The notes under the pieces were generated by a model. That model ran no database searches and was not told the origin of the DNA. It worked only from the letters and a program-made list of their open reading frames with translations. DNA of 64,000 bases from Bacillota bacterium (GTDB lineage Bacteria; Bacillota; Halanaerobiia; B1SED10-174): NCBI GenBank assembly GCA_007122335.1, contig SKTZ01000014.1:6170-70169 (forward strand). The letters run 5' to 3'. The position numbers were made by a program, and so were the translations under genes. Every line of letters begins with the position of its first letter. The stretch's first letter is position 1. This document shows positions 3,126 to 46,897 of this stretch, one piece after another.

Positions 3126-4385
3126 ATGCTTACTGCACTCTCAAATGCATTAAAAGTAAAAGAACTCCGCAAGAAAATCCTGTTCATCTTTGCTATGATT
3201 ACTGTTTACCGGCTGGGTTCTTTTGTCCCGGTTCCGGGAGTAGATCCGGCCCAATTCCGGGAATTAATTGAAGCCGGCGGTATCCTTGGTTTACTTGACC
3301 TTTTTACCGGCGGTGCCCTGGCTCGTTTTACCATCTTCGCAATGGGGATCAGTCCCTATATTACCGCATCTATTATCATGCAGCTCCTTACGGCAGTTGT
3401 TCCCAAGCTGGAACAGCTTTCCAAGGAAGGGCCTGAGGGCAGGAAAATAATTGCCCAGTATACCCGTTATGCTACTGTTGTTCTTGGATTTGTCCAGGGT
3501 ATTGGTTTTACCATGTTTATTCAGAACATGGGAGCAATCCCGGATCCGAACATTGTTAGCCTGGGAATTATTGTCCTAACTCTTACCGCAGGAACTGCTT
3601 TCCTGATGTGGTTGGGAGAGCAAATTACGGAAAAAGGAATTGGAAATGGTATATCGATTCTGATTTTCACCTCGATTATTTCCGTTTATCCGAGCGTGTT
3701 CTTTGATACAATTGAGCGCTTCCAGCTCGGAACTGTATCTATCTGGAACCTCCTGATCTTTGTTGTTGCCGGGCTCGCCCTCGTGGCTGCAATTATCTTT
3801 GTTCAGCAGGGTGAGAGAAGGATACCGGTTCAATATTCCAAGCGGGTGGTAGGACGCCGTATTTACGGCGGGCGTTCAACACATATCCCGATGAAGGTAA
3901 ACCAGGCTGGTGTTATTCCTGTAATTTTTGCTTCCAGTGTGCTGGCTTTCCCAGTGACCATAGCCCAATTACTTCCCTTTGGATGGGCCCAGAGTCTGGC
4001 AGAAGCCCTGCAGCCTGAAGGAGCTCTTTATCTGGGAACTTTTGCTGCTATGATTATTTTCTTCACTTACTTTTATACAGCGATCACTTTCAACCCGCAG
4101 GAAGTATCAGATAACATTAAAAAATACGGTGGTTTTGTTCCGGGATTACGTCCGGGTCGTTCAACTGCCTCCTATATGGACCGAATTTTAACGAGAATAA
4201 CCCTGGCTGGGGCTGTCTTCCTGGCAATAGTTGCAATCCTGCCCAACTTTATGCTTCCGCTTACACGGATTAACATTGAATTTGGTGGAACATCACTGCT
4301 GATTGTAACAGGTGTCGCTCTTGAAACCATGAAGCAAATCGAATCTCACCTTCTCATGCGCCATTACGAAGGTTTTATGCGTTAG
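3126..4385 (+). CDS. secY: preprotein translocase subunit SecY
   Basis: 419-aa polytopic membrane protein with SecY signature segments, in the conserved position after rplO. Confidence 0.95.
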   Translation: MLTALSNALKVKELRKKILFIFAMITVYRLGSFVPVPGVDPAQFRELIEAGGILGLLDLFTGGALARFTIFAMGISPYITASIIMQLLTAVVPKLEQLSKEGPEGRKIIAQYTRYATVVLGFVQGIGFTMFIQNMGAIPDPNIVSLGIIVLTLTAGTAFLMWLGEQITEKGIGNGISILIFTSIISVYPSVFFDTIERFQLGTVSIWNLLIFVVAGLALVAAIIFVQQGERRIPVQYSKRVVGRRIYGGRSTHIPMKVNQAGVIPVIFASSVLAFPVTIAQLLPFGWAQSLAEALQPEGALYLGTFAAMIIFFTYFYTAITFNPQEVSDNIKKYGGFVPGLRPGRSTASYMDRILTRITLAGAVFLAIVAILPNFMLPLTRINIEFGGTSLLIVTGVALETMKQIESHLLMRHYEGFMR

Positions 4386-4395
4386 GAGGACTTTT

Positions 4396-5043
4396 ATGAA
4401 CATCGTTTTTTTGGGACTACCGGGAACGGGAAAAGGAACACAGGCAGAGGAACTTGCCGGCGAATTGAGGATCCCCCATATTGCCACGGGTGATATTTTT
4501 CGCCAGGCAATCAGTCAGGGAACCGACCTGGGAAAAAAGGCAAAAAAGTTCCTTGATTCTGGAGAGCTTGTTCCTGATGAAGTTACCTGTGGAATGGTTA
4601 AGGAAAGGTTGATGCAGGAAGATGCAGCTTCGGGTTTTATCCTTGACGGTTTCCCCCGAACCCTTCCCCAGGCCGAGGCTTTAGACCGGATAATGGATGA
4701 ACTGAACCGGGAACTGGAAAAGATTGTTTTCTTCTCCGCTCCCGAAGAGGTTCTGGTCATGAGACTTGCGGGCAGGCGAGTATGCTCAGAATGCGGAACT
4801 ACCTATCACATCGAGCATAATCCTCCCTCTCAGGAAGGGATTTGCGATAAATGTGGAGGGAAGCTGATCCAGCGCGAAGATGACCGGGAGGAAACTGTAG
4901 TCCGTCGACTCCAGGTAAACAGGGATAAAACTCAGCAACTGGTGAATTACTATGAAAAGCAAGGAAAACTGACTACAATCGATGCTGATCGTTCGCTGGA
5001 AGAAGTTAAAATACAACTAAAAGAAGCAGTGGCCTCCCCATGA
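4396..5043 (+). CDS. adk: adenylate kinase
   Basis: 215-aa ORF with a GLPGTGKGTQ P-loop and the CxxC...CxxC zinc lid (CSECG...CDKCG). Conserved position after secY. Confidence 0.95.
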   Translation: MNIVFLGLPGTGKGTQAEELAGELRIPHIATGDIFRQAISQGTDLGKKAKKFLDSGELVPDEVTCGMVKERLMQEDAASGFILDGFPRTLPQAEALDRIMDELNRELEKIVFFSAPEEVLVMRLAGRRVCSECGTTYHIEHNPPSQEGICDKCGGKLIQREDDREETVVRRLQVNRDKTQQLVNYYEKQGKLTTIDADRSLEEVKIQLKEAVASP

Positions 5044-5786
5044 TTATCTGTAAATCAAAGCGGGAAATCGATTATTTGCTGAAAGCTGGTTCCATTGCAG
5101 CCCAGGCCCAGGAGAAGATGGCTGAATTAATCGCTCCGGGAATAACTACAGGGGAAATTGATCGCCTGGCAGAAGAATTCATTTCTCGAAATGGTGCCCG
5201 ACCAGCCTTCAAAGGTTATCGGGGCTTCCCCGCAAGTGTATGTTCCTCAGTTAATGACCAAGTAGTCCACGGAATTCCAGGCGATCGAGTTTTAAAAGAA
5301 GGCGATATTGTAAGCCTGGATGTGGGAACAATAATGGACGGATTTTACGGAGATTGTGCTCGCACCGTTCCAGTGGGAAAGGTTAGCAGGGAAGCAGAAC
5401 AACTTATCGAGGTTACCCGTAAGAGCCTGGAAGAAGGAATTGCCAGGGCTCAAGAGGGAGGAAGACTTACTGATATTTCCCACGCCATTCAGAATTATGT
5501 TGAACAACATGGATATTCGGTTGTCAGGGATTATGTGGGACACGGTATTGGCAGGTCGATGCATGAAGCTCCCCAGATTCCAAACTTTGGGCCACCAAAC
5601 CGAGGACCCCGGCTGAAGAAGGGTATGACCCTGGCGATAGAACCCATGGTAAATTGCGGGAGCTATGAGGTTAAGACCCTGAAAGATGGTTGGACGGTTG
5701 TAACCTGTGATGGAAGTCTTTCTGCTCACTTTGAAGATTCCATTGCGATTGATGGTGACAGGGCCCAAATCCTGACCAAACCTTAA
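5040..5786 (+). CDS. map: type I methionine aminopeptidase
   Basis: 248-aa ORF. The DIVSLDVG and HGIG..MHE metal-ligand motifs match Map. It overlaps the adk stop by 4 nt. Confidence 0.93.
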   Translation: MIICKSKREIDYLLKAGSIAAQAQEKMAELIAPGITTGEIDRLAEEFISRNGARPAFKGYRGFPASVCSSVNDQVVHGIPGDRVLKEGDIVSLDVGTIMDGFYGDCARTVPVGKVSREAEQLIEVTRKSLEEGIARAQEGGRLTDISHAIQNYVEQHGYSVVRDYVGHGIGRSMHEAPQIPNFGPPNRGPRLKKGMTLAIEPMVNCGSYEVKTLKDGWTVVTCDGSLSAHFEDSIAIDGDRAQILTKP

Positions 5787-13606: not shown

Positions 13607-14941
13607 ATGCCCTTGGAAATTGCGGCTTTAGCGCCCCACCCGCCCATAATAATTCCCGAAATCGGGGGTGGCGAAAGGAATAAAGTTGCGAAGACTATTG
13701 AATCAATGGAAGAATTGGCCAGAATTTTTGTAGGTAAAGAACTAGATGTCCTAGTAACGATAAGTCCCCATGGTCCTGTTTTTTCTGATGTAATCAGCAG
13801 TCTCCACGTGAATCCCATCAGGGGTTCTTTTGCTGCCTTTGGCCACCCCCAGGTTAGCCTGACGCTGGAGCTTGAAGAAACACTTAGTGAAAATATTAAC
13901 CGGGAAATGGAAAGAGAAAAAATACCTTTTCGAAAACTTAGAGAAGAAGACTGCAAACGTTTCAGGATAACCCCTGAACTGGACCACGGCGTCCTTGTCC
14001 CCTTATATTTTCTTCAGGAGCAGGGAATTGATTTGCCCCTGGTTCCACTGAACATGGGTCTTTTAACCTATGCAGAATTAATTCAAGCAGGAAATGTTCT
14101 GCAGAGAGTTTTCGCTGATTACCCTGCCCGGATCGGAGTTATTGCCAGCGGTGATTTGTCCCATCGCCTCACAAAAAATGCTCCTGCGGGTTATAGTCCT
14201 CAGGGGCGGGAATTTGATGAAAAGGTTATGGAAATAATTGAAGGGGGGAACCTTTTAGAGTTAAAAGACCTTGACCCGATTCTTGTAGAAAGAGCAGGTG
14301 AATGCGGGCTGCGGCCTCTTTTAATTCTTGCCGGTGTTCTTTCCGGCAAACCAGTAAAAAGCCAGGTGCTCTCCTATGAAGGACCATTTGGAGTTGGCTA
14401 TGGAGTTGCCTGTTTTACCGAGGGAAGTGCTGCCCCTCCGGGCCTGGCCAGAAAAGCAGTAGAAGCATACCTGGAAAAAAAGGAAGTAATAGAACCTCCT
14501 GCTGAGCTTCCGGACCTGTTTAAAGTAATGGCTGGAGCCTTTGTTTCTATTAAAAAGCTTGATGGGTCTTTGCGTGGCTGTATCGGCACCCTGGAGCCTA
14601 CCCAAAAAAATCTTGCCCAGGAAATAATCAGGAATGCCATCCAGTCTGCCTTCAAAGATCCCCGCTTTCCCCCAGTCAGTAAGATGGAAATGGAAGAACT
14701 TGTTTTTTCCGTTGATGTAATTCATCCACCTGAACCAGTAGATAGTATTGCCGACCTGGACCACAAAAAATACGGTGTTATTGTTGAGAAAGGCGGGAAA
14801 AAGGGAGTTTTACTCCCGGACCTGGAGGGAATTAATTCTGTAGAGGAACAGGTGGAAATTGCTAAAATGAAGGCTGGGCTGGGAGGAACTCCTGATGTTT
14901 TCCTGAAAAGGTTCCAGGTTGAAAGATATATACAGGAGTGA
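13607..14941 (+). CDS. fusion protein: LigB/Memo-like extradiol-dioxygenase-fold domain + AMMECR1 domain (AmmeMemoRadiSam components A and B fused)
   Basis: 444-aa single ORF. The N-terminal roughly 270 aa shows class-III extradiol dioxygenase / Memo-clan motifs (APHPPIIIPEIGGGER, VTISPHGP, ASGDLSHRL). The C-terminal roughly 170 aa carries the AMMECR1 hallmark SLRGCIGTLEP. It sits immediately upstream of the cognate radical SAM gene. Confidence 0.75.
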   Translation: MPLEIAALAPHPPIIIPEIGGGERNKVAKTIESMEELARIFVGKELDVLVTISPHGPVFSDVISSLHVNPIRGSFAAFGHPQVSLTLELEETLSENINREMEREKIPFRKLREEDCKRFRITPELDHGVLVPLYFLQEQGIDLPLVPLNMGLLTYAELIQAGNVLQRVFADYPARIGVIASGDLSHRLTKNAPAGYSPQGREFDEKVMEIIEGGNLLELKDLDPILVERAGECGLRPLLILAGVLSGKPVKSQVLSYEGPFGVGYGVACFTEGSAAPPGLARKAVEAYLEKKEVIEPPAELPDLFKVMAGAFVSIKKLDGSLRGCIGTLEPTQKNLAQEIIRNAIQSAFKDPRFPPVSKMEMEELVFSVDVIHPPEPVDSIADLDHKKYGVIVEKGGKKGVLLPDLEGINSVEEQVEIAKMKAGLGGTPDVFLKRFQVERYIQE

Positions 14942-22993: not shown

Positions 22994-24343
22994 TTGATCT
23001 TGCCTTCAATATTTGGAACTGATGGAGTTCGTGGAGTTGCCAACAGGGAATTAACTCCTGAGCTTGCATTAAAATTAGGCCTCGCAGGAGGCAGATACTT
23101 ATTAGATAAGCAAATAAATCCGGGCAGGGGAAAAGTTTTAATAGGTCGAGATACCCGGCTTTCGGGAGATATGCTGGAATCTGCTCTCGTTGCAGGACTA
23201 ACTGCTGCGGGTTTGGATGTCCACCTCGGGGGGATTTTGCCTACCCCAGCAGTTGCCTACCTAACACGAACAGAAGATTTCTCTGGCGGGATCATGATTT
23301 CCGCTTCCCATAATCCAATTGCAGATAATGGGATCAAATTTTTTAATGCTGATGGGAACAAATTAACCGATAAACAGGAAAACCAAATCGAAACCTATCT
23401 GGAAAACGGTGAAAAATATGCCCGGCCTGAAGGCGAAGAGGTGGGTAAAAAAAGAGAAGCATTCCAGTTAAAAGAAAAGTACATGAATTTTTTGTGCAGC
23501 AAGGCTAATGGAGATTTTACTGGATATAAAGTTGTTCTGGATACCGCCTACGGGGCTGCATGGGAAATAGCTCCCCGGGTCTGGGAACTGCTTGGCGCAG
23601 ATGTTATCAGTCTCCACGATTCTCCTGCAGGAGAAAAAATTAACCATCAATGTGGCTCAACTTATCCCCAGGTAATCAGGGAAATCATCCTGGAAGCGGG
23701 AGCAGATTTTGGTTTTGCTTTTGATGGAGATGCCGACAGGGTAATTGCCATTGATGAAGAAGGCAACGAACTTGACGGTGATTTTATTATGGCTATTTGT
23801 GGTTGTCACCTATTAAAAACCGGGAGACTCGCTAACAGAACCTTAGTGGCAACCAAGTACAGTAACCAGGGCCTAAAAGAAGCTCTACAAAAAGAGGGGG
23901 GAGAGTTACTCCTCACTCAGAATGGTGATCGCTACGTTTTTGAGGCTCTAAAAGGGAAAAAATTAAATCTGGGAGGTGAAAAATCAGGTCATATAATTTT
24001 CCTTGAAGAAAATACTACAGGAGATGGTCTCCTTACCTCAATTATGCTCGCAAATGTGATATCTTCTGAGCATGATAAGCTTTCACAGCTGGCAAAGGTA
24101 ATGAAACCCTGGCCCCAGTTGTTAAGAAATGTTGAGGTTAAGGACAAAGGTTGGAAAGACAACCTGAAAATTCAGGAAGTGATTAAGAGGTCAGAAAATA
24201 CTCTGGGTGACCGGGGCCGAATTTTGGTCCGGGCATCGGGAACTGAACCCGTAATTAGAGTGATGGTGGAAGGAAAAGACGAAAAAATTCTTGGGAAAAT
24301 TCTGAATGGTGTTGTTGGGGTAATTGAAAAAGAACTCGGTTAA
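22994..24343 (+). CDS. glmM: phosphoglucosamine mutase
   Basis: 449-aa ORF with an active-site serine loop (SASHNP), GTDGVRG and FDGDADR motifs. Confidence 0.93.
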   Translation: MILPSIFGTDGVRGVANRELTPELALKLGLAGGRYLLDKQINPGRGKVLIGRDTRLSGDMLESALVAGLTAAGLDVHLGGILPTPAVAYLTRTEDFSGGIMISASHNPIADNGIKFFNADGNKLTDKQENQIETYLENGEKYARPEGEEVGKKREAFQLKEKYMNFLCSKANGDFTGYKVVLDTAYGAAWEIAPRVWELLGADVISLHDSPAGEKINHQCGSTYPQVIREIILEAGADFGFAFDGDADRVIAIDEEGNELDGDFIMAICGCHLLKTGRLANRTLVATKYSNQGLKEALQKEGGELLLTQNGDRYVFEALKGKKLNLGGEKSGHIIFLEENTTGDGLLTSIMLANVISSEHDKLSQLAKVMKPWPQLLRNVEVKDKGWKDNLKIQEVIKRSENTLGDRGRILVRASGTEPVIRVMVEGKDEKILGKILNGVVGVIEKELG

Positions 24344-24344
24344 T

Positions 24345-24505
24345 CAAGCGCCTGGTCTTGGCTCAAGCCAAGTTGACGAGGTAGAGGTTTATCGAATTAT
24401 CGGCGGATGCCTCTAGGCCTGCTACCGGTCTTGAGCCAGTCTTTAAAACTTGCAAGTGATTGTAAGGCAAAGAGGCTGGTAGGTGGCTAAAGCAGTTGAA
24501 TGGAA
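24345..24505 (+). ncRNA. glmS leader: glmS ribozyme (GlcN6P-responsive self-cleaving riboswitch)
   Basis: Core sequence ...AAGCGCCUGG...GCUCAAGCCAAGUUGACGAGGUAGAGGUUUAUCGAAUUAUCGGCGGAUGCCUCU... matches the conserved glmS ribozyme core (GUUGACGAGG..UUAUCGAAUU.UCGGCGGAUGCCUCC). It lies directly upstream of glmS. Confidence 0.9.
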
Positions 24506-24517
24506 GGGGAGAAGTTA

Positions 24518-26341
24518 ATGTGTGGAATAGTTGGATATATAGGGCCTAAAGGGGCCGTTCCAATATTGCTTGAAGGTTTGAAAAAACTGGAGTACCGTGG
24601 TTATGATTCTGCTGGAATTGCGGTAATTGAAGATAAAAACCTTGAGCTTCGTAAAGCAGAAGGGAAACTAAAGGTCCTAGATGATAAACTCAGCCTGGAA
24701 AAATTTAAGGGAAATATTGGACTTGGGCATACCCGCTGGGCAACTCATGGCAGGCCTTCAGATGAAAATGCACACCCTCACCAGGATTGTGGGGGAAAAC
24801 TGGCCCTGGTTCATAACGGGATAATCGAAAACTTCCAGGAAATAAAAAGGAATCTTGAAAAAGAAGGACATACCTTTTCTTCGGAAACGGATACGGAAGT
24901 TGTGGTGCACCTGGTTGAAAAATTCTTTTCGGGAAATCTTTCCGAAGCAGTGCAGAAGGCGACAGCCCTACTTGAAGGTTCTTATGCAATTGCTGTAATC
25001 AACCAGGAGAACCCCGATCAAATTGTAGCTTACCGCCAGGACAGTCCCCTTATTCTGGGAATAGGCGAAGGAGAATATTATCTTGCGTCAGATATTCCGG
25101 CCCTTTTACCTTATACCCGCAGAGTAATAATCCTGGAGGACGGTGAAATGGTGGAATTGAACCGGGAAAACTATAGGGTTATTGGCCCTGGTGGAGAACT
25201 GCTGAATAAGGAAATTGAAGAAATAGACTGGGACCTGGAAATGGCCGAGAAAAAAGGTTTTCCGCATTACATGTTAAAAGAAATTCATGAGCAACCTGAT
25301 GTTATGCGGCAATTGCTGGAAAAGCCTCTTAGGGGGAGCGAAATCGAACTTCCGGAAATTGATGCCATTCTCAAGAGCCAGGAGAAAATCGAGAAAATTT
25401 TTATTGTGGCCTGTGGAACCGCATATCACTCGGGTTTAATTGGTAAAGCCTTATTGGAAAAGGCAACCGGGATTCCCGTGGAAGTTGATATGGCGTCTGA
25501 ATTCCGTTATCGTTCTCCTCTGATTGGAGAAAATTCCCTTGTTATTGTGGTCAGCCAGTCGGGAGAAACGGCTGATACGCTGGCAGCTCTCCGCCATGCC
25601 CGGGATAAAAGAGCAAAAACCTTAGGAATAGTAAATGTCCAGGGCAGTACAATAGCCAGGGAGGCAGACCAGTTATTATTAATAGAAGCAGGGCTGGAGA
25701 TTGCTGTTGCTTCTACCAAAGCCTATTTAAATATGCTGACTGCTTTTAACCTCCTTGCCCTTAAAATGGGTGATGGTGATATCGCCGGGAATGAAAATGG
25801 CGAATTGCTTCATCTTCTAAGAGAAATACCTGCTCAGGTGGAAAAAACCCTGCTCAGGATGGAGAAGCCAGTTCGCAAAGCGGCAGAGTATATCAAAAAC
25901 TGGGATAATGCTTTTTTTGTGGGGAGGGGGCTGGATTTCAGCCTTGCCCTGGAAGGGGCTTTGAAATTAAAAGAAATTTCATATATTCACGCCGAGGCCT
26001 ATGCAGCAGGGGAATTAAAACATGGAACCCTGGCCTTAATCGAGGAAGGAATTCCCGTTGTTGCCCTCCTAACCCAGGAGAGCCTTTTAGAGAAGATGAT
26101 TAGCAATATCCAGGAAATCAGAGCCCGTGGTGGCTATGTATTTGGTATTACTCAGGACAGATTTGCTTCCCGCGTGGCAGAGGAAGTTGATTTCCTTTTT
26201 AAAATACCCAATACTGCTGATATTTTTGCTCCTCTGCTGGGAACTGTTCCCCTGCAACTACTCTCCTATTTCACAGCGGATTTCCGGGATTGCCCGATAG
26301 ATCAACCCCGGAATCTGGCAAAAAGCGTTACAGTTGAATGA
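24518..26341 (+). CDS. glmS: glutamine--fructose-6-phosphate aminotransferase
   Basis: The true start is MCGIVGY (Cys nucleophile) at 24518; the ORF track starts upstream at 24500. GATase-2 and two SIS domains are present. Confidence 0.95.
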   Translation: MCGIVGYIGPKGAVPILLEGLKKLEYRGYDSAGIAVIEDKNLELRKAEGKLKVLDDKLSLEKFKGNIGLGHTRWATHGRPSDENAHPHQDCGGKLALVHNGIIENFQEIKRNLEKEGHTFSSETDTEVVVHLVEKFFSGNLSEAVQKATALLEGSYAIAVINQENPDQIVAYRQDSPLILGIGEGEYYLASDIPALLPYTRRVIILEDGEMVELNRENYRVIGPGGELLNKEIEEIDWDLEMAEKKGFPHYMLKEIHEQPDVMRQLLEKPLRGSEIELPEIDAILKSQEKIEKIFIVACGTAYHSGLIGKALLEKATGIPVEVDMASEFRYRSPLIGENSLVIVVSQSGETADTLAALRHARDKRAKTLGIVNVQGSTIAREADQLLLIEAGLEIAVASTKAYLNMLTAFNLLALKMGDGDIAGNENGELLHLLREIPAQVEKTLLRMEKPVRKAAEYIKNWDNAFFVGRGLDFSLALEGALKLKEISYIHAEAYAAGELKHGTLALIEEGIPVVALLTQESLLEKMISNIQEIRARGGYVFGITQDRFASRVAEEVDFLFKIPNTADIFAPLLGTVPLQLLSYFTADFRDCPIDQPRNLAKSVTVE

Positions 26342-33740: not shown

Positions 33741-34229
33741 GTGGTTAAACTGGATATTAGACTGATGAAGTTTTCTGATCTTCCCCGAATTATGGAGATT
33801 GAAAAAAAATCGTTTCGTTCCCCCTGGTCGGAGAGGCTTTTTCGTCATGAACTGTCCCGCAACCGCCGGGCCAGTTATTTGGTCTTCGAGGACCAGGATT
33901 TAATTATAGGTTATGTAGGAATGTGGTTTTTGCCCGGTGAAATCCACATTACCAGTCTGGCAGTCGCTCCAGAGTACCGCCGTAAGGGTATTGCTTCCCG
34001 GCTAATTGAAGAGGTTTATAAAGCCGCCCAGGAAAAAAAGGTTTATCGAATTACACTGGAGGTAAGAGCCTCCAATAAAGTAGCACGTCAACTGTACAAA
34101 AAAGAAGGCTTTGCGGAAACGGGAATTAAACCCTGTTATTACAGTGATAACCGGGAAGACGCTGTAATAATGACCAGGAAATTGGAAGGAGGCGGAGATA
34201 ATGGGCACGGATTTAATTTTAGGAATTGA
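33741..34229 (+). CDS. rimI: ribosomal-protein-alanine N-acetyltransferase
   Basis: GNAT fold (acetyl-CoA motif RRKGIASRLI). Conserved position between tsaB and tsaD. Confidence 0.85.
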   Translation: MVKLDIRLMKFSDLPRIMEIEKKSFRSPWSERLFRHELSRNRRASYLVFEDQDLIIGYVGMWFLPGEIHITSLAVAPEYRRKGIASRLIEEVYKAAQEKKVYRITLEVRASNKVARQLYKKEGFAETGIKPCYYSDNREDAVIMTRKLEGGGDNGHGFNFRN

Positions 34230-35211
34230 AACCTCCTGTGATGAAACTTCGGCTGCTGTAGTGGATAAAGGAAGATATGTGAAGAGCAATATAATTGCTT
34301 CTCAGATTAACCTGCACCGGGAATTTGGTGGTGTAGTTCCTGAACTGGCTTCTCGAAAACACCTGGAATTATTGGATCGGGTGATAAAAAGAGCTCTGGA
34401 AAAAGCGGAAGTCAACTTCTCGGATCTGCAGGGAATAGCAGTAACCTACGGTCCTGGTCTGGTAGGCAGTTTACTGATAGGGATTGTTGCTGCCAAAACC
34501 CTCTCCTGGGCCCTGGGTTTGCCTCTGATAGGAGTTAACCATATTCTGGGCCATATCTACTCCAATCTTCTGGAACACCCGGAACTAAAGCCTCCTCTGC
34601 TTTGTCTTACGGTATCAGGGGGTCATACCGACCTTTTATATACTGAAGAATGGGGCCAGTATCAAATTCTGGGAAGAACCAGGGATGATGCTGCCGGGGA
34701 ATCTTTTGATAAGGTTGCACGCTTCCTTGGCCTGGGTTACCCGGGAGGGCCTGCTATTGAAAGAATTGCCGAAACAGGAAATTCCGAAAGATTTCCTCTC
34801 CCCAGGCCAGATCTGGGTGAGGACAGGTATGGTTTTTCTTTTAGTGGTTTAAAAACTGCTGTCATCAACCTGGCTCACAACCTTGAACAGAGAGAGGGAA
34901 ATATTCCTGAAGCAGATATAGCCGCTTCGTTTCAAAAGACGGTTGTTGATATTCTCCTGGAAAGGGTTGAAAGGGCCTTAAAGGATTTTCCTGTGGACAA
35001 GGTCCTTCTTGCAGGGGGCGTTGCTGCAAATAAGTATCTGCGCAGGCGCCTGGAAGAAATGCTAAAAGAGAAAAGGGCCAGTCTGTACTACCCATCACTT
35101 GAATACTGTACCGATAATGCTGCAATGATTGCAGGGGCTGGTTACTTCCTGCTAAAACAGGGAAAAACCAGCATGCTGGATTTAGACGCCCATCCGCAAT
35201 TGAAATTATAG
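34201..35211 (+). CDS. tsaD: tRNA N6-adenosine threonylcarbamoyltransferase
   Basis: 336-aa Kae1/Gcp (GIETSCDETS..., HILGHIY metal site). Confidence 0.93.
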   Translation: MGTDLILGIETSCDETSAAVVDKGRYVKSNIIASQINLHREFGGVVPELASRKHLELLDRVIKRALEKAEVNFSDLQGIAVTYGPGLVGSLLIGIVAAKTLSWALGLPLIGVNHILGHIYSNLLEHPELKPPLLCLTVSGGHTDLLYTEEWGQYQILGRTRDDAAGESFDKVARFLGLGYPGGPAIERIAETGNSERFPLPRPDLGEDRYGFSFSGLKTAVINLAHNLEQREGNIPEADIAASFQKTVVDILLERVERALKDFPVDKVLLAGGVAANKYLRRRLEEMLKEKRASLYYPSLEYCTDNAAMIAGAGYFLLKQGKTSMLDLDAHPQLKL

Positions 35212-35238
35212 CCTGTGAGTTTTTTCGCACTGGCGAAT

Positions 35239-35415
35239 TGTGGAAAATGTGGAAAAACCCTTTCCTCCTCATGCCGGGAAGGGTTTTTCTGTGGACATAA
35301 AAAGGTAAAAAATGTAATCGGAAATGGAAATTTTAAGAAAACCTGTGGATAAGTTCGATGGTTTTCGGCCTTCAGGTGATCTAAGTGTGGATAAGTCTGT
35401 GGATACTGTGGATAT
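35239..35415 (+). promoter_or_regulatory. cluster of DnaA boxes (7 same-orientation TGTGGAnAA motifs)
   Basis: There are two perfect reverse-complement DnaA boxes TGTGGATAA (35344-35352, 35386-35394). Two tandem one-mismatch boxes are TGTGGATAC (35398-35406) and TGTGGATAT (35407-35415). Further one- or two-mismatch boxes are TGTGGAAAA (35239-35247, 35248-35256) and TGTGGACAT (35290-35298). The cluster lies between tsaD (gcp) and the next gene. Confidence 0.75.
35256..35290 (+). terminator. rho-independent terminator after tsaD
   Basis: AAAAACCCTTTCC-loop-GGAAGGGTTTTTCT. The stem is slightly imperfect. Confidence 0.7.
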
Positions 35416-35430
35416 AGGAGGAGGCGGGAA

Positions 35431-36750
35431 ATGATAAAAAAATGGGAACAGTTAATCGTGGAAAGTTATAGCAGAGATAATATCCTCCATCTGACCTCTA
35501 TATGTACCCAGAAATGTGTCTTTTGCAGCCACCGATTCAACCCTCCTGAAATAGAAGTTTTTTCTCCTGGCCACCTGCCTTTGCCTTTTATTAAGGAGAT
35601 GATGGATTTTTTAGATCCCGGGAGAACGGTCAGGACGGGAGAATCTGTAAGCAGAGTAATTGAAGGAGAACCCTTCTGTCATCCTGATTTTTTCGAGATT
35701 ATAGAGTTATTCCGATCCTGCTATCCGGATACTCCCCTGGAAATTGTAACCGGAGGGGATCGGCTGGACGAGGATAAGATAAAACGGCTTGCAGAACTTA
35801 AACCCTTGAGTTTAAAATTTTCGCTTAATCTGGTTGACCCAATTTTGAGAGGGAGGTTTCTTTCGGCAAAAAAAGAAAAAATTGAGCCAGTTTTAAACAG
35901 CCTGCAGATTGAGGGAATCCCCTATTCAGTAACTGCTGTTGCTATTCCACATTTAACCGGGTGGGAGGCCCTTGATAAAACCATTAACCTTGCTTCAAGG
36001 TATGGGCCTGAAGATATTACAGTTTACCGCCCCGCATTTTCCGGGAAAGCTCCAGGGAATTTAATCCCTGCTCCAGCCCAGGATGAGGAACTGGAAAAAC
36101 ACCTTGAAGCTCTATCGGCTCAAATTAAAACCCCACTTTTGCTTGAACCTGCCAGGCTTTACGATTTTATTCCCAGAGTTGTTGGGGTTCGGGAACAAAG
36201 TCCTGCTGGGAAAGCTGGACTACAAACTGGAGATGTTATTGTTTCTGTAGACGGAGTAAAACCCTGGTCCCGAGTAGAAGCACATCTTGCCCTGAACAAG
36301 GCGGGAGGAAAAAGGCTTTTGATCCAGAGAGCGGGAAAAGAAAAGGAATTATTTTTGCAGAATGGAAGTAATTCCTGCAGTGGAGCAATTTTCTATCGGG
36401 ATATCGATTTCAGGATTATCGAGGAAATAAAGGAAACTGGAGCAAGAGAAAAAGTTGGTGTTGTAACATCTTATGGAGCTTTTCCCCTTTTACAGGGGGG
36501 TTTATCGGGAAGTGAAATCGAATTATTTCCAGTTGCCAATAGAGGATTTGGCGGGAATTTGAATTCTGCAGGCCTTTTGGGGGTTAGAGATATTCTTCAG
36601 CAAGCCGGAAAAGCTTTTGTGGAGAAAGAACTGGAGAAAATAATCCTTCCGGGGGTTATGTTTGATAGGCGGGGTCGAGACCTCTGGGGTCTAAATATTA
36701 CTGAGCTTGAAGAAAGGGTTGGCATTCCCTGTTTGGAATTTTCTGGTTGA
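35431..36750 (+). CDS. DUF512-type protein: radical SAM-like N-terminal domain + PDZ domain
   Basis: 439-aa ORF with CTQKCVFC (CxxxCxxC) near the N-terminus and a PDZ-like segment (GVREQSPAGKAGLQTGDVIVSVDG). Confidence 0.6.
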   Translation: MIKKWEQLIVESYSRDNILHLTSICTQKCVFCSHRFNPPEIEVFSPGHLPLPFIKEMMDFLDPGRTVRTGESVSRVIEGEPFCHPDFFEIIELFRSCYPDTPLEIVTGGDRLDEDKIKRLAELKPLSLKFSLNLVDPILRGRFLSAKKEKIEPVLNSLQIEGIPYSVTAVAIPHLTGWEALDKTINLASRYGPEDITVYRPAFSGKAPGNLIPAPAQDEELEKHLEALSAQIKTPLLLEPARLYDFIPRVVGVREQSPAGKAGLQTGDVIVSVDGVKPWSRVEAHLALNKAGGKRLLIQRAGKEKELFLQNGSNSCSGAIFYRDIDFRIIEEIKETGAREKVGVVTSYGAFPLLQGGLSGSEIELFPVANRGFGGNLNSAGLLGVRDILQQAGKAFVEKELEKIILPGVMFDRRGRDLWGLNITELEERVGIPCLEFSG

Positions 36751-36902: not shown

Positions 36903-36929
36903 TTAGCACTCGGCTAAGATGAGTGCTAA
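36903..36929 (+). promoter_or_regulatory. CIRCE operator (HrcA binding site)
   Basis: Perfect inverted repeat TTAGCACTC-N9-GAGTGCTAA, about 40 nt upstream of groES. A TATAAT -10 at 36886-36891 is just upstream. Confidence 0.95.
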
Positions 36930-46820: not shown

Positions 46821-46897
46821 TGGTCGGAGCGCCGGGATTTGAACCCGGGACCTCTGCCTCCCGAAGACAGCGCGCTTCCAAGCTGCGCTACGCTCCG
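46821..46897 (-). tRNA. trnP: tRNA-Pro (anticodon CGG)
   Basis: The reverse complement folds as a canonical cloverleaf. The parts are: acceptor CGGAGCG/CGCTCCG, D-arm GCGC-AGCTTGGAA-GCGC, anticodon arm CTGTC-TTCGGGA-GGCAG with anticodon CGG, T-arm CCGGG-TTCAAAT-CCCGG, discriminator A, and an encoded CCA. Confidence 0.9.

Follow-up and report, generated by a model that had tools for sequence, protein, structure and literature searches.

A seven-box, probably DnaA-docking array in the tsaD 3' spacer of a Halanaerobiales-like bacterium, at the position of the Bacillus subtilis gcp-ydiF cluster

Does the run of TGTGGA repeats that follows tsaD (gcp) in a Halanaerobiales-like bacterium belong to the same kind of element as the DnaA-box cluster behind gcp in Bacillus subtilis, and what might such an element do for the cell? 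The B. subtilis gcp-ydiF cluster is one of six DnaA-box clusters (DBCs) that lie outside oriC, and it binds DnaA stably in vivo (Ishikawa 2007, PMC2533591); a cluster downstream of gcp has already been reported as conserved in Bacillus, Geobacillus and Oceanobacillus (PMC2533591). We investigated the equivalent spacer in a 64,000-nucleotide stretch of DNA, referred to below as the window, in which the original prediction had placed a cluster of DnaA boxes after the genes tsaE-tsaB-rimI-tsaD and near groESL. Pfam and NCBIfam searches confirmed this arrangement, with the gene order asparaginase II, M20 peptidase, tsaE, tsaB, rimI, tsaD, the cluster, a radical-SAM/PDZ/DUF512 gene and groES-groEL. 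The tsaD gene itself (34201-35211, + strand; Pfam TsaD, 2.8e-100; NCBIfam equivalog TIGR03723, 444.7 bits versus a cut-off of 296) is the last of the tsaE-tsaB-rimI-tsaD run, and the cluster starts 28 nt past its stop codon. The radical-SAM/PDZ/DUF512 gene (35431-36750, + strand) is co-directional with tsaD and was identified from its Pfam domains (Radical_SAM, 1.6e-13; PDZ_6, 8.6e-09; DUF512, 3.5e-06), with no match in NCBIfam; reading of the sequence places its RBS, AGGAGGAGG, at 35416-35424 and its ATG at 35431-35433.

The spacer between tsaD and this next gene measures 219 bp and holds, within 177 bp (35239-35415), seven co-oriented DnaA boxes with a TGTGGA core. The cores start at 35239, 35248, 35290, 35344, 35386, 35398 and 35407, and the consensus TTATCCACA reads on the - strand. 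Seven TGTGGAnAA motifs in one orientation within about 180 bp had been predicted; the seven co-oriented cores are indeed there, but the literal TGTGGAnAA pattern is matched by only four of them, the other three reading TGTGGACAT, TGTGGATAC and TGTGGATAT. Two boxes, at 35344 and 35386, match TTATCCACA fully, in agreement with the claim of two perfect motifs, four more carry a single mismatch and one (35290) carries two. On the - strand the imperfect boxes read TTTTCCACA (twice), GTATCCACA and ATATCCACA, with one mismatch each, and ATGTCCACA, with two.

Box 1 (35239-35247, - strand; TTTTCCACA, or TGTGGAAAA on the + strand) has a core that is invariant at 85-100% TsaD identity, with one box column differing in a single relative of that set (L092). 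It is abutted by box 2 (35248-35256, - strand, TTTTCCACA) to form a 9-bp pair, and box 2 in turn overlaps the 5' arm of the terminator hairpin. Box 3 (35290-35298, - strand, ATGTCCACA) follows 42 bp from box 2 and in relatives keeps an invariant TGTGGA core with variable final three positions. The spacer between boxes 3 and 4 (35299-35343) is conserved in composition and drifts in sequence, being A-rich in every close relative with short A-runs at roughly helical spacing; these A-runs could make the DNA intrinsically bent where the cluster's two halves meet. The perfect box 4 (35344-35352, - strand) then opens a four-box module (35344-35415) in which it is followed by the equally perfect box 5 (35386-35394, - strand), by box 6 (35398-35406, - strand, GTATCCACA) and by box 7 (35407-35415, - strand, ATATCCACA), at start-to-start spacings of 42, 12 and 9 bp, and which ends 1 nt before the RBS of the downstream gene. 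At the other end of the spacer, a CTGTGA (35213-35218) directly follows the tsaD stop and does not vary among any of the relatives at 85-100% identity (TGTGAGTTT / TGTGAATTT). With two to three mismatches it could represent an eighth, degenerate box; it is out of helical phase with the others.

An intrinsic terminator of tsaD (35251-35290, + strand) lies inside the cluster, with a stem formed by 35251-35265 and 35276-35290, a loop at 35266-35275 and a T-run at 35284-35288 in the RNA fold. Its GC core (35258-35265 and 35276-35283) reads CCCTTTCC/GGGAAGGG and is followed by TTTTT, and the inverted repeat of 14 nt is 93% complementary. Boxes 1 and 2 lie before the hairpin or overlap its 5' arm and boxes 3-7 come after it, so that the boxes straddle the terminator ahead of the next gene, just as first described. 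In relatives, 95% of the cells in the stem alignment are paired, through one-sided changes only, and we found no compensatory covariation among the aligned relatives; the terminator call therefore rests on folding energy and the T-run.

The concentration of boxes in this spacer stands out within the window. Both perfect 9-mers of the 64 kb fall in the cluster, as do 6 of the 29 sites within one mismatch, and outside it the list of positions, read by eye, shows at most two cores per 180 bp. A first-order Markov simulation of the window (n=300) gave one to four cores in its densest 180 bp versus the seven observed, and a Poisson estimate for a seven-core cluster is about 4e-8 window-wide. Chance or a low-complexity repeat was ruled out by this simulation together with the phylogenetic footprint described below, the only repeated units being the 9-11-nt boxes. 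Measured against the density of a DBC, that is, several boxes matching TTATNCACA with at most one mismatch in about 200 bp of intergenic DNA, the spacer contains six such boxes and one with two mismatches in 177 bp.

We then compared the spacers of contigs whose TsaD proteins are 100, 94, 90, 88 and 85% identical to that of the window. In the relatives at 85-94% identity, all 42 core columns and 57 of the 63 box columns are invariant, versus 71 of the 142 other spacer columns (Fisher, 8e-9). The boxes are thus kept while the flanking spacer drifts, which supports reading the motifs as DnaA boxes under selection. The exact TsaD protein also occurs on contigs of two soda-lake sediment assemblies (GCA_007126785.1 and GCA_003557885.1) and of one JGI soda-lake sediment sample, and the closest TsaD proteins from named organisms belong to Halanaerobiales, at about 60-62% identity. 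In the relative at 94% identity (L087, GCA_003554585.1) the radical-SAM/PDZ/DUF512 gene (4231-5550) is called as two pieces of 118 and 237 aa, reflecting either a frameshift or pseudogene or an assembly error.

The array extends to more distant relatives. Two metagenomic loci, L094 and L095 (65 and 66% TsaD identity), share the gene order of the window and retain six to eight boxes, of which the last four are spaced 42, 12 and 9 bp start-to-start, identical to the window. The cultured Anoxybacter fermentans (Halanaerobiales incertae sedis, 60% TsaD identity) shares the order tsaD, radical-SAM gene, groESL, and its 127-bp spacer holds five boxes of one orientation with at most one mismatch, including three perfect ones, and two more TGTGGA cores are visible. 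No cluster follows tsaD in three other Halanaerobiales, namely Halobacteroides halobius, Natroniella and one further genome. A broad genome scan with TsaD, in which a cluster was scored within 600 bp of the gene, gave 77 usable loci among the matches listed; 4 of these 77 carried a cluster (Pseudalkalibacillus, Aliicoccus and two Clostridia MAGs, L022 and L044), and none was present in any sampled locus of Lachnospiraceae (36 by labels assigned from record titles, again among the matches listed). Because it is absent from three Halanaerobiales and from all sampled Lachnospiraceae loci, the cluster is either dispensable or has been gained and lost repeatedly.

The two Clostridia MAGs bear the same four-box module as the window, with spacings of 43/12/9 bp in L022, where the module sits between convergent genes, and 42/12/9 bp in L044. 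Scanning metagenomes with the triple-box pattern TGTGGAnAA-N3-TGTGGA-N3-TGTGGA returned at least 120 loci (L098-L217), and in at least 10 of them tsaD lies directly upstream on the same strand. The array recurs 3' of tsaD in unrelated Clostridia (L022, L044 and at least 10 metagenome contigs) whichever gene follows, and its orientation relative to tsaD is constant. A specific association of the triple-box array with tsaD was rejected, as it recurs near other genes and only the version with a fourth box is tsaD-linked: 7 of 10 tsaD-linked sites have this additional box, 41-46 bp ahead of the triple, versus 4 of 114 other sites (all among the matches listed). Because it recurs near so many other genes, the triple is a generic DnaA array. 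On Clostridia-like contigs it is also found after an acyl-ACP thioesterase gene (at least 11 loci) and before a SpoU/RlmB-type methylase gene (at least 10), as well as after an HtrA-type protease gene (at least 10) and before mnmE (at least 8), the MnmE identity of the ORF cluster beside the array being confirmed by Pfam; it further occurs near class-II aldolase, gyrB, recF and a sigma-factor gene among the metagenome matches listed. These counts are non-independent, many of the contigs being gut-derived and possibly related. Within the module the spacer is kept in length and not in sequence, which points to shared ancestry or to a shared geometric constraint at the tsaD position. Where other genes lie between tsaD and ydiF in Bacillales, the boxes remain beside the 3' end of ydiF, as in two Paenibacillus (L037, 7793-8040; L076, 7554-7800) and a Jeotgalicoccus (L058, 5166-5304), in which they are some 2.5 kb away from tsaD. 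In Bacillales the element thus goes with ydiF, and in Clostridia with tsaD.

The box starts are also in phase with the DNA helix. At a period of 10.5 bp, the phasing of the window boxes (R=0.85, P about 0.002), of L095 (R=0.92, P 0.0004) and of the co-oriented boxes of the B. subtilis group (R=0.84, P 0.008) was assessed with a test picked after the spacings had been seen. The window boxes occupy one face of the DNA.

The surroundings of the cluster give an indication of its place on the chromosome. The window begins with secY, adk, rpoA, an ABC ATPase gene and truA, of which secY-adk-rpoA-truA lie at 3-12.5 kb and secY-rpoA 26-32 kb upstream of the cluster. Of the large ORFs, 38 of 41 are on the + strand, and GC skew is positive in all 2-kb bins but one, which is slightly negative, near 60-62 kb and 25 kb from the cluster. 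Because of this gene-strand bias and positive skew, the locus is on the leading strand and probably origin-proximal, with the origin probably outside the window; no dnaA signature motifs were found in six frames of the 64 kb. In complete records, counted from the record start, the orthologous locus lies at about 88 kb in Anoxybacter fermentans (CP016379.1, tsaD at about 87.8-88.8 kb) and at 98 kb in Natroniella. Elsewhere in the window we observed a single tRNA gene on the - strand (46824-46897), a glmS ribozyme (24336-24490, + strand; Rfam RF00234, 101 bits) directly upstream of glmS (24500-26341, with SIS and GATase domains), and a fused LigB-type (Memo-like) and AMMECR1 protein (13607-14941), which we take to belong to the AmmeMemoRadiSam system.

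Taken together, we consider it highly probable that the array is a chromosomal non-origin DBC, a cooperative docking array for ATP-DnaA in the tsaD 3' spacer. DnaA binding and a preference for the ATP form would be expected at the window cluster by analogy with its B. subtilis counterpart, for which a Kd of 0.15 uM was measured with ATP-DnaA versus 0.33 uM with ADP, along with 16-fold more recovery with ATP-DnaA at 55 nM (Smith & Grossman 2015, PMC4447404). The host dnaA lies outside the window, so that the specificity of the boxes is taken from how DnaA domain IV is conserved in general; this point, the absence of the cluster from other Halanaerobiales and Lachnospiraceae, and the single-deletion result in B. 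subtilis given below all weigh against the reading. In the mechanism we propose, domain IV would dock on the two perfect and four near-perfect boxes, with the perfect boxes nucleating binding, and the tight spacings (9, 12 and 9 bp) together with the 42-bp, four-turn gaps would allow contact between neighbouring ATP-DnaA protomers. The whole spacer could then be filled cooperatively, with ATP-DnaA favoured, at low ATP-DnaA concentrations, as measured for gcp-ydiF. Such an array would be a high-affinity DnaA docking site which, jointly with other clusters of its kind, probably buffers free ATP-DnaA near the origin. Both this buffering and a transcriptional effect are inferred for the window cluster, and the cluster could plausibly help to buffer free DnaA only in concert with others of its kind.

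A less probable reading, which nevertheless merits attention, is that the primary job of the array is transcriptional, DnaA acting as a repressor or roadblock (or an activator) of the radical-SAM/PDZ/DUF512 gene and linking expression of that gene to the state of replication. In the window clade, in L094 and L095 and in Anoxybacter fermentans, the array runs right up to the RBS of this gene, and in L094 and L095 promoter-like matches located 22-31 bp ahead of box 4 would put boxes 4-7 in the 5' leader; in B. subtilis, DnaA controls sda, ywlC and yydA through clusters of a comparable kind (PMC2533591). Within the window, a scan for sigma-70-like promoters gave no match in the tsaD spacer, which counts against this reading, and the sole plausible -10 candidate for the radical-SAM gene that we could read is a weak TGTAAT (35313-35318). 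There is also no promoter to serve where the four-box module lies between convergent genes, as in L022 and likewise in the B. subtilis-group cluster, and the gene and the boxes are found apart: the radical-SAM gene of Halobacteroides lies elsewhere without boxes, and that of Natroniella follows tsaD without boxes. Because the same module also occurs between convergent genes, control of the radical-SAM gene is not its general role. An effect of DnaA on the adjacent gene in this clade is plausible as a secondary, local one that is compatible with the docking array: with boxes 4-7 lying between the likely promoter region and the RBS, an occupied array would hinder transcription into the radical-SAM/PDZ/DUF512 gene. 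The suggestion that DnaA might regulate groESL found no support, as groES has a promoter-like site of its own and a CIRCE operator at 36903-36929. This perfect CIRCE-type inverted repeat, TTAGCACTC-N9-GAGTGCTAA, lies just upstream of groES and had been labelled 'terminator-like' by the scan; it presumably places groESL under its own HrcA-type control. The likely groES start is at about 36967, according to gene callers on identical contigs, rather than at the ATG at 36919 given in the list of ORFs.

E. coli datA works by IHF-dependent stimulation of ATP-DnaA hydrolysis. That the window array is a datA-like initiation-timing element, one which alone measurably delays initiation by titrating DnaA or by stimulating hydrolysis of ATP-DnaA, we regard as unlikely. 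The cluster is dense and probably of high affinity, its locus is probably origin-proximal, as judged from secY-rpoA upstream and from the position of the Anoxybacter orthologue, and joint removal of all six B. subtilis clusters advances initiation, raising ori/ter to 1.37 times that of wild type (Okumura 2012, PMC3245932). The orthologous B. subtilis cluster, however, has no effect alone: its single deletion leaves ori/ter at 0.99 of wild type, and re-inserting gcp-ydiF into the six-fold deletion gives 1.35, that is, no rescue (PMC3245932). The premise that the B. subtilis cluster modulates initiation is therefore not borne out for gcp-ydiF in particular. The datA mechanism needs IHF, which a review lists among the factors absent from B. 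subtilis, and a ten-fold overproduction of DnaA gives no over-initiation in that organism (review). According to reviews, none of the B. subtilis DBCs has been found to play a significant role of its own, and later ones still cite the clusters solely in support of the view that free DnaA is sensed by initiation. The proposal of a datA-like DnaA sink conserved in this lineage is consequently borne out for the conservation of the cluster, in the close relatives and in Anoxybacter fermentans, and overstated for a sink that modulates initiation.

A 36-codon ORF (35324-35434) that spans boxes 4-7, ends in an ATGA with the radical-SAM start and is annotated on some contigs was considered as a leader or precursor peptide of the radical-SAM enzyme and rejected, since conservation tracks the boxes and not the codons and the frame is broken in L087 (by a stop) and in L090 and L092 (no ATG). 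An origin or unwinding element was likewise rejected: the window contains no dnaA signature, there is no skew switch at the cluster, and no DnaA-trio-like repeat was seen by eye after the last box in any lineage examined. We find it very improbable that the repeats are something other than DnaA sites, be it operators of another TGTGGA-binding regulator, a fragment of some repeat element, a feature of coding sequence, or an origin that is secondary or a relic. This ORF and the AT-rich spacer between boxes 3 and 4 might suggest as much, but the repeats stop at 9-11 nt, each genome has two to three copies that match the DnaA box at 9/9 positions, it is the 9-mers and not a reading frame that are under selection, and the module is also present where no gene follows.

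Returning to the docking array, its wider interest lies in the fact that gcp-ydiF is among the strongest DnaA sites of B. subtilis, is flanked by the ends of two genes and can be deleted on its own with no resulting phenotype. Boxes under selection at the same position in distant Bacillota, with base-pair-exact spacing and on one face of the helix, argue that the site is functional, and that selection keeps geometry rather than box number. We tentatively raise the idea, which we hold to be more doubtful than not by some distance, that the tsaD 3' array is an ancient, fixed-geometry Bacillota element that spans Bacilli, several Clostridia and Halanaerobiales-like bacteria, has been lost repeatedly and has a conserved role tied to its locus and not to bulk titration. 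If true, such a role might couple ATP-DnaA status to the expression or termination of operons for tRNA anticodon-loop modification, together with the clusters at ywlC (which we take to correspond to tsaC) and mnmE; alternatively, the array might be a DnaA-dependent structural anchor of an origin-proximal domain. The cultured Anoxybacter fermentans offers a new test system, as do lineages in which the array abuts a gene start and hence provides a read-out. What our analysis adds is the depth of conservation, a module exact to the base pair and a species in culture to work with; it leaves the picture of replication control unchanged.

For the comparison with known systems we used a TsaD probe sequence, which gave a match (P0121) 99% identical to it. 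The P0121 locus has the order thiL-tsaE-tsaB-rimI-tsaD-(ydiF, convergent)-moaC-rex-tatA, and the label 'B. subtilis group' used here rests on the match to this probe and on this gene order. We fetched the locus since the supplements of PMC4447404 give no box sequences for gcp-ydiF. Its spacer contains nine to ten boxes, in agreement with the 8-10 sites reported for the gcp-ydiF cluster (PMC2533591, PMC4447404): six to seven share the orientation of the tsaD sense strand and include two abutting 9-bp pairs and 41-45-bp gaps, and three are in one orientation at 11-bp spacing.

The window cluster is thus a positional counterpart of the B. subtilis gcp-ydiF cluster, directly 3' of tsaD after tsaE-tsaB-rimI, as the original prediction held. 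Both arrays are of similar size (seven boxes in the window, 8-10 in B. subtilis, with two to three perfect), have most boxes co-oriented with the tsaD sense strand, share abutting 9-bp pairs, gaps of about 42-45 bp and the use of one helical face, and contain a terminator. They differ in orientation, which is the same for all seven window boxes while B. subtilis adds an inverted trio spaced by 11 bp, and in that the 42/12/9 four-box module is absent from B. subtilis. The next gene is the co-directional radical-SAM/PDZ/DUF512 gene in the window and the convergent ABC-F gene ydiF in B. subtilis, so that a transcriptional effect is possible in the former, unlike beside convergent ydiF. Placement between the convergent 3' ends of tsaD and ydiF is accordingly not found in the window, being a trait of the Bacillales version and not of DBCs generally. 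The host also differs, belonging to a Halanaerobiales-like soda-lake lineage and not to Bacillaceae. Our literature search, which covered few subscription journals, found no paper on a tsaD-adjacent cluster in Clostridia or Halanaerobiales, nor any that mentions the soda-lake assembly accessions. With E. coli datA the array shares the character of a non-origin DnaA-box cluster that might lower initiation potential; there is no positional or sequence relationship, and the resemblance is conceptual only. Other B. subtilis DnaA clusters lie beside tRNA-modification genes, upstream of ywlC and of trmE/thdF (mnmE), where ywlC is repressed by DnaA and DnaA-dependent expression of the thdF operon is only suggested (PMC2533591). 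These are elements of the same kind, and the triple array also lies upstream of mnmE in the Clostridia-like metagenome loci, but they are located in promoter regions whereas the tsaD cluster is at a 3' end. The window cluster is therefore a further case of the known non-oriC DnaA-box cluster type, for which the idea of conservation had already been published in Bacillaceae.
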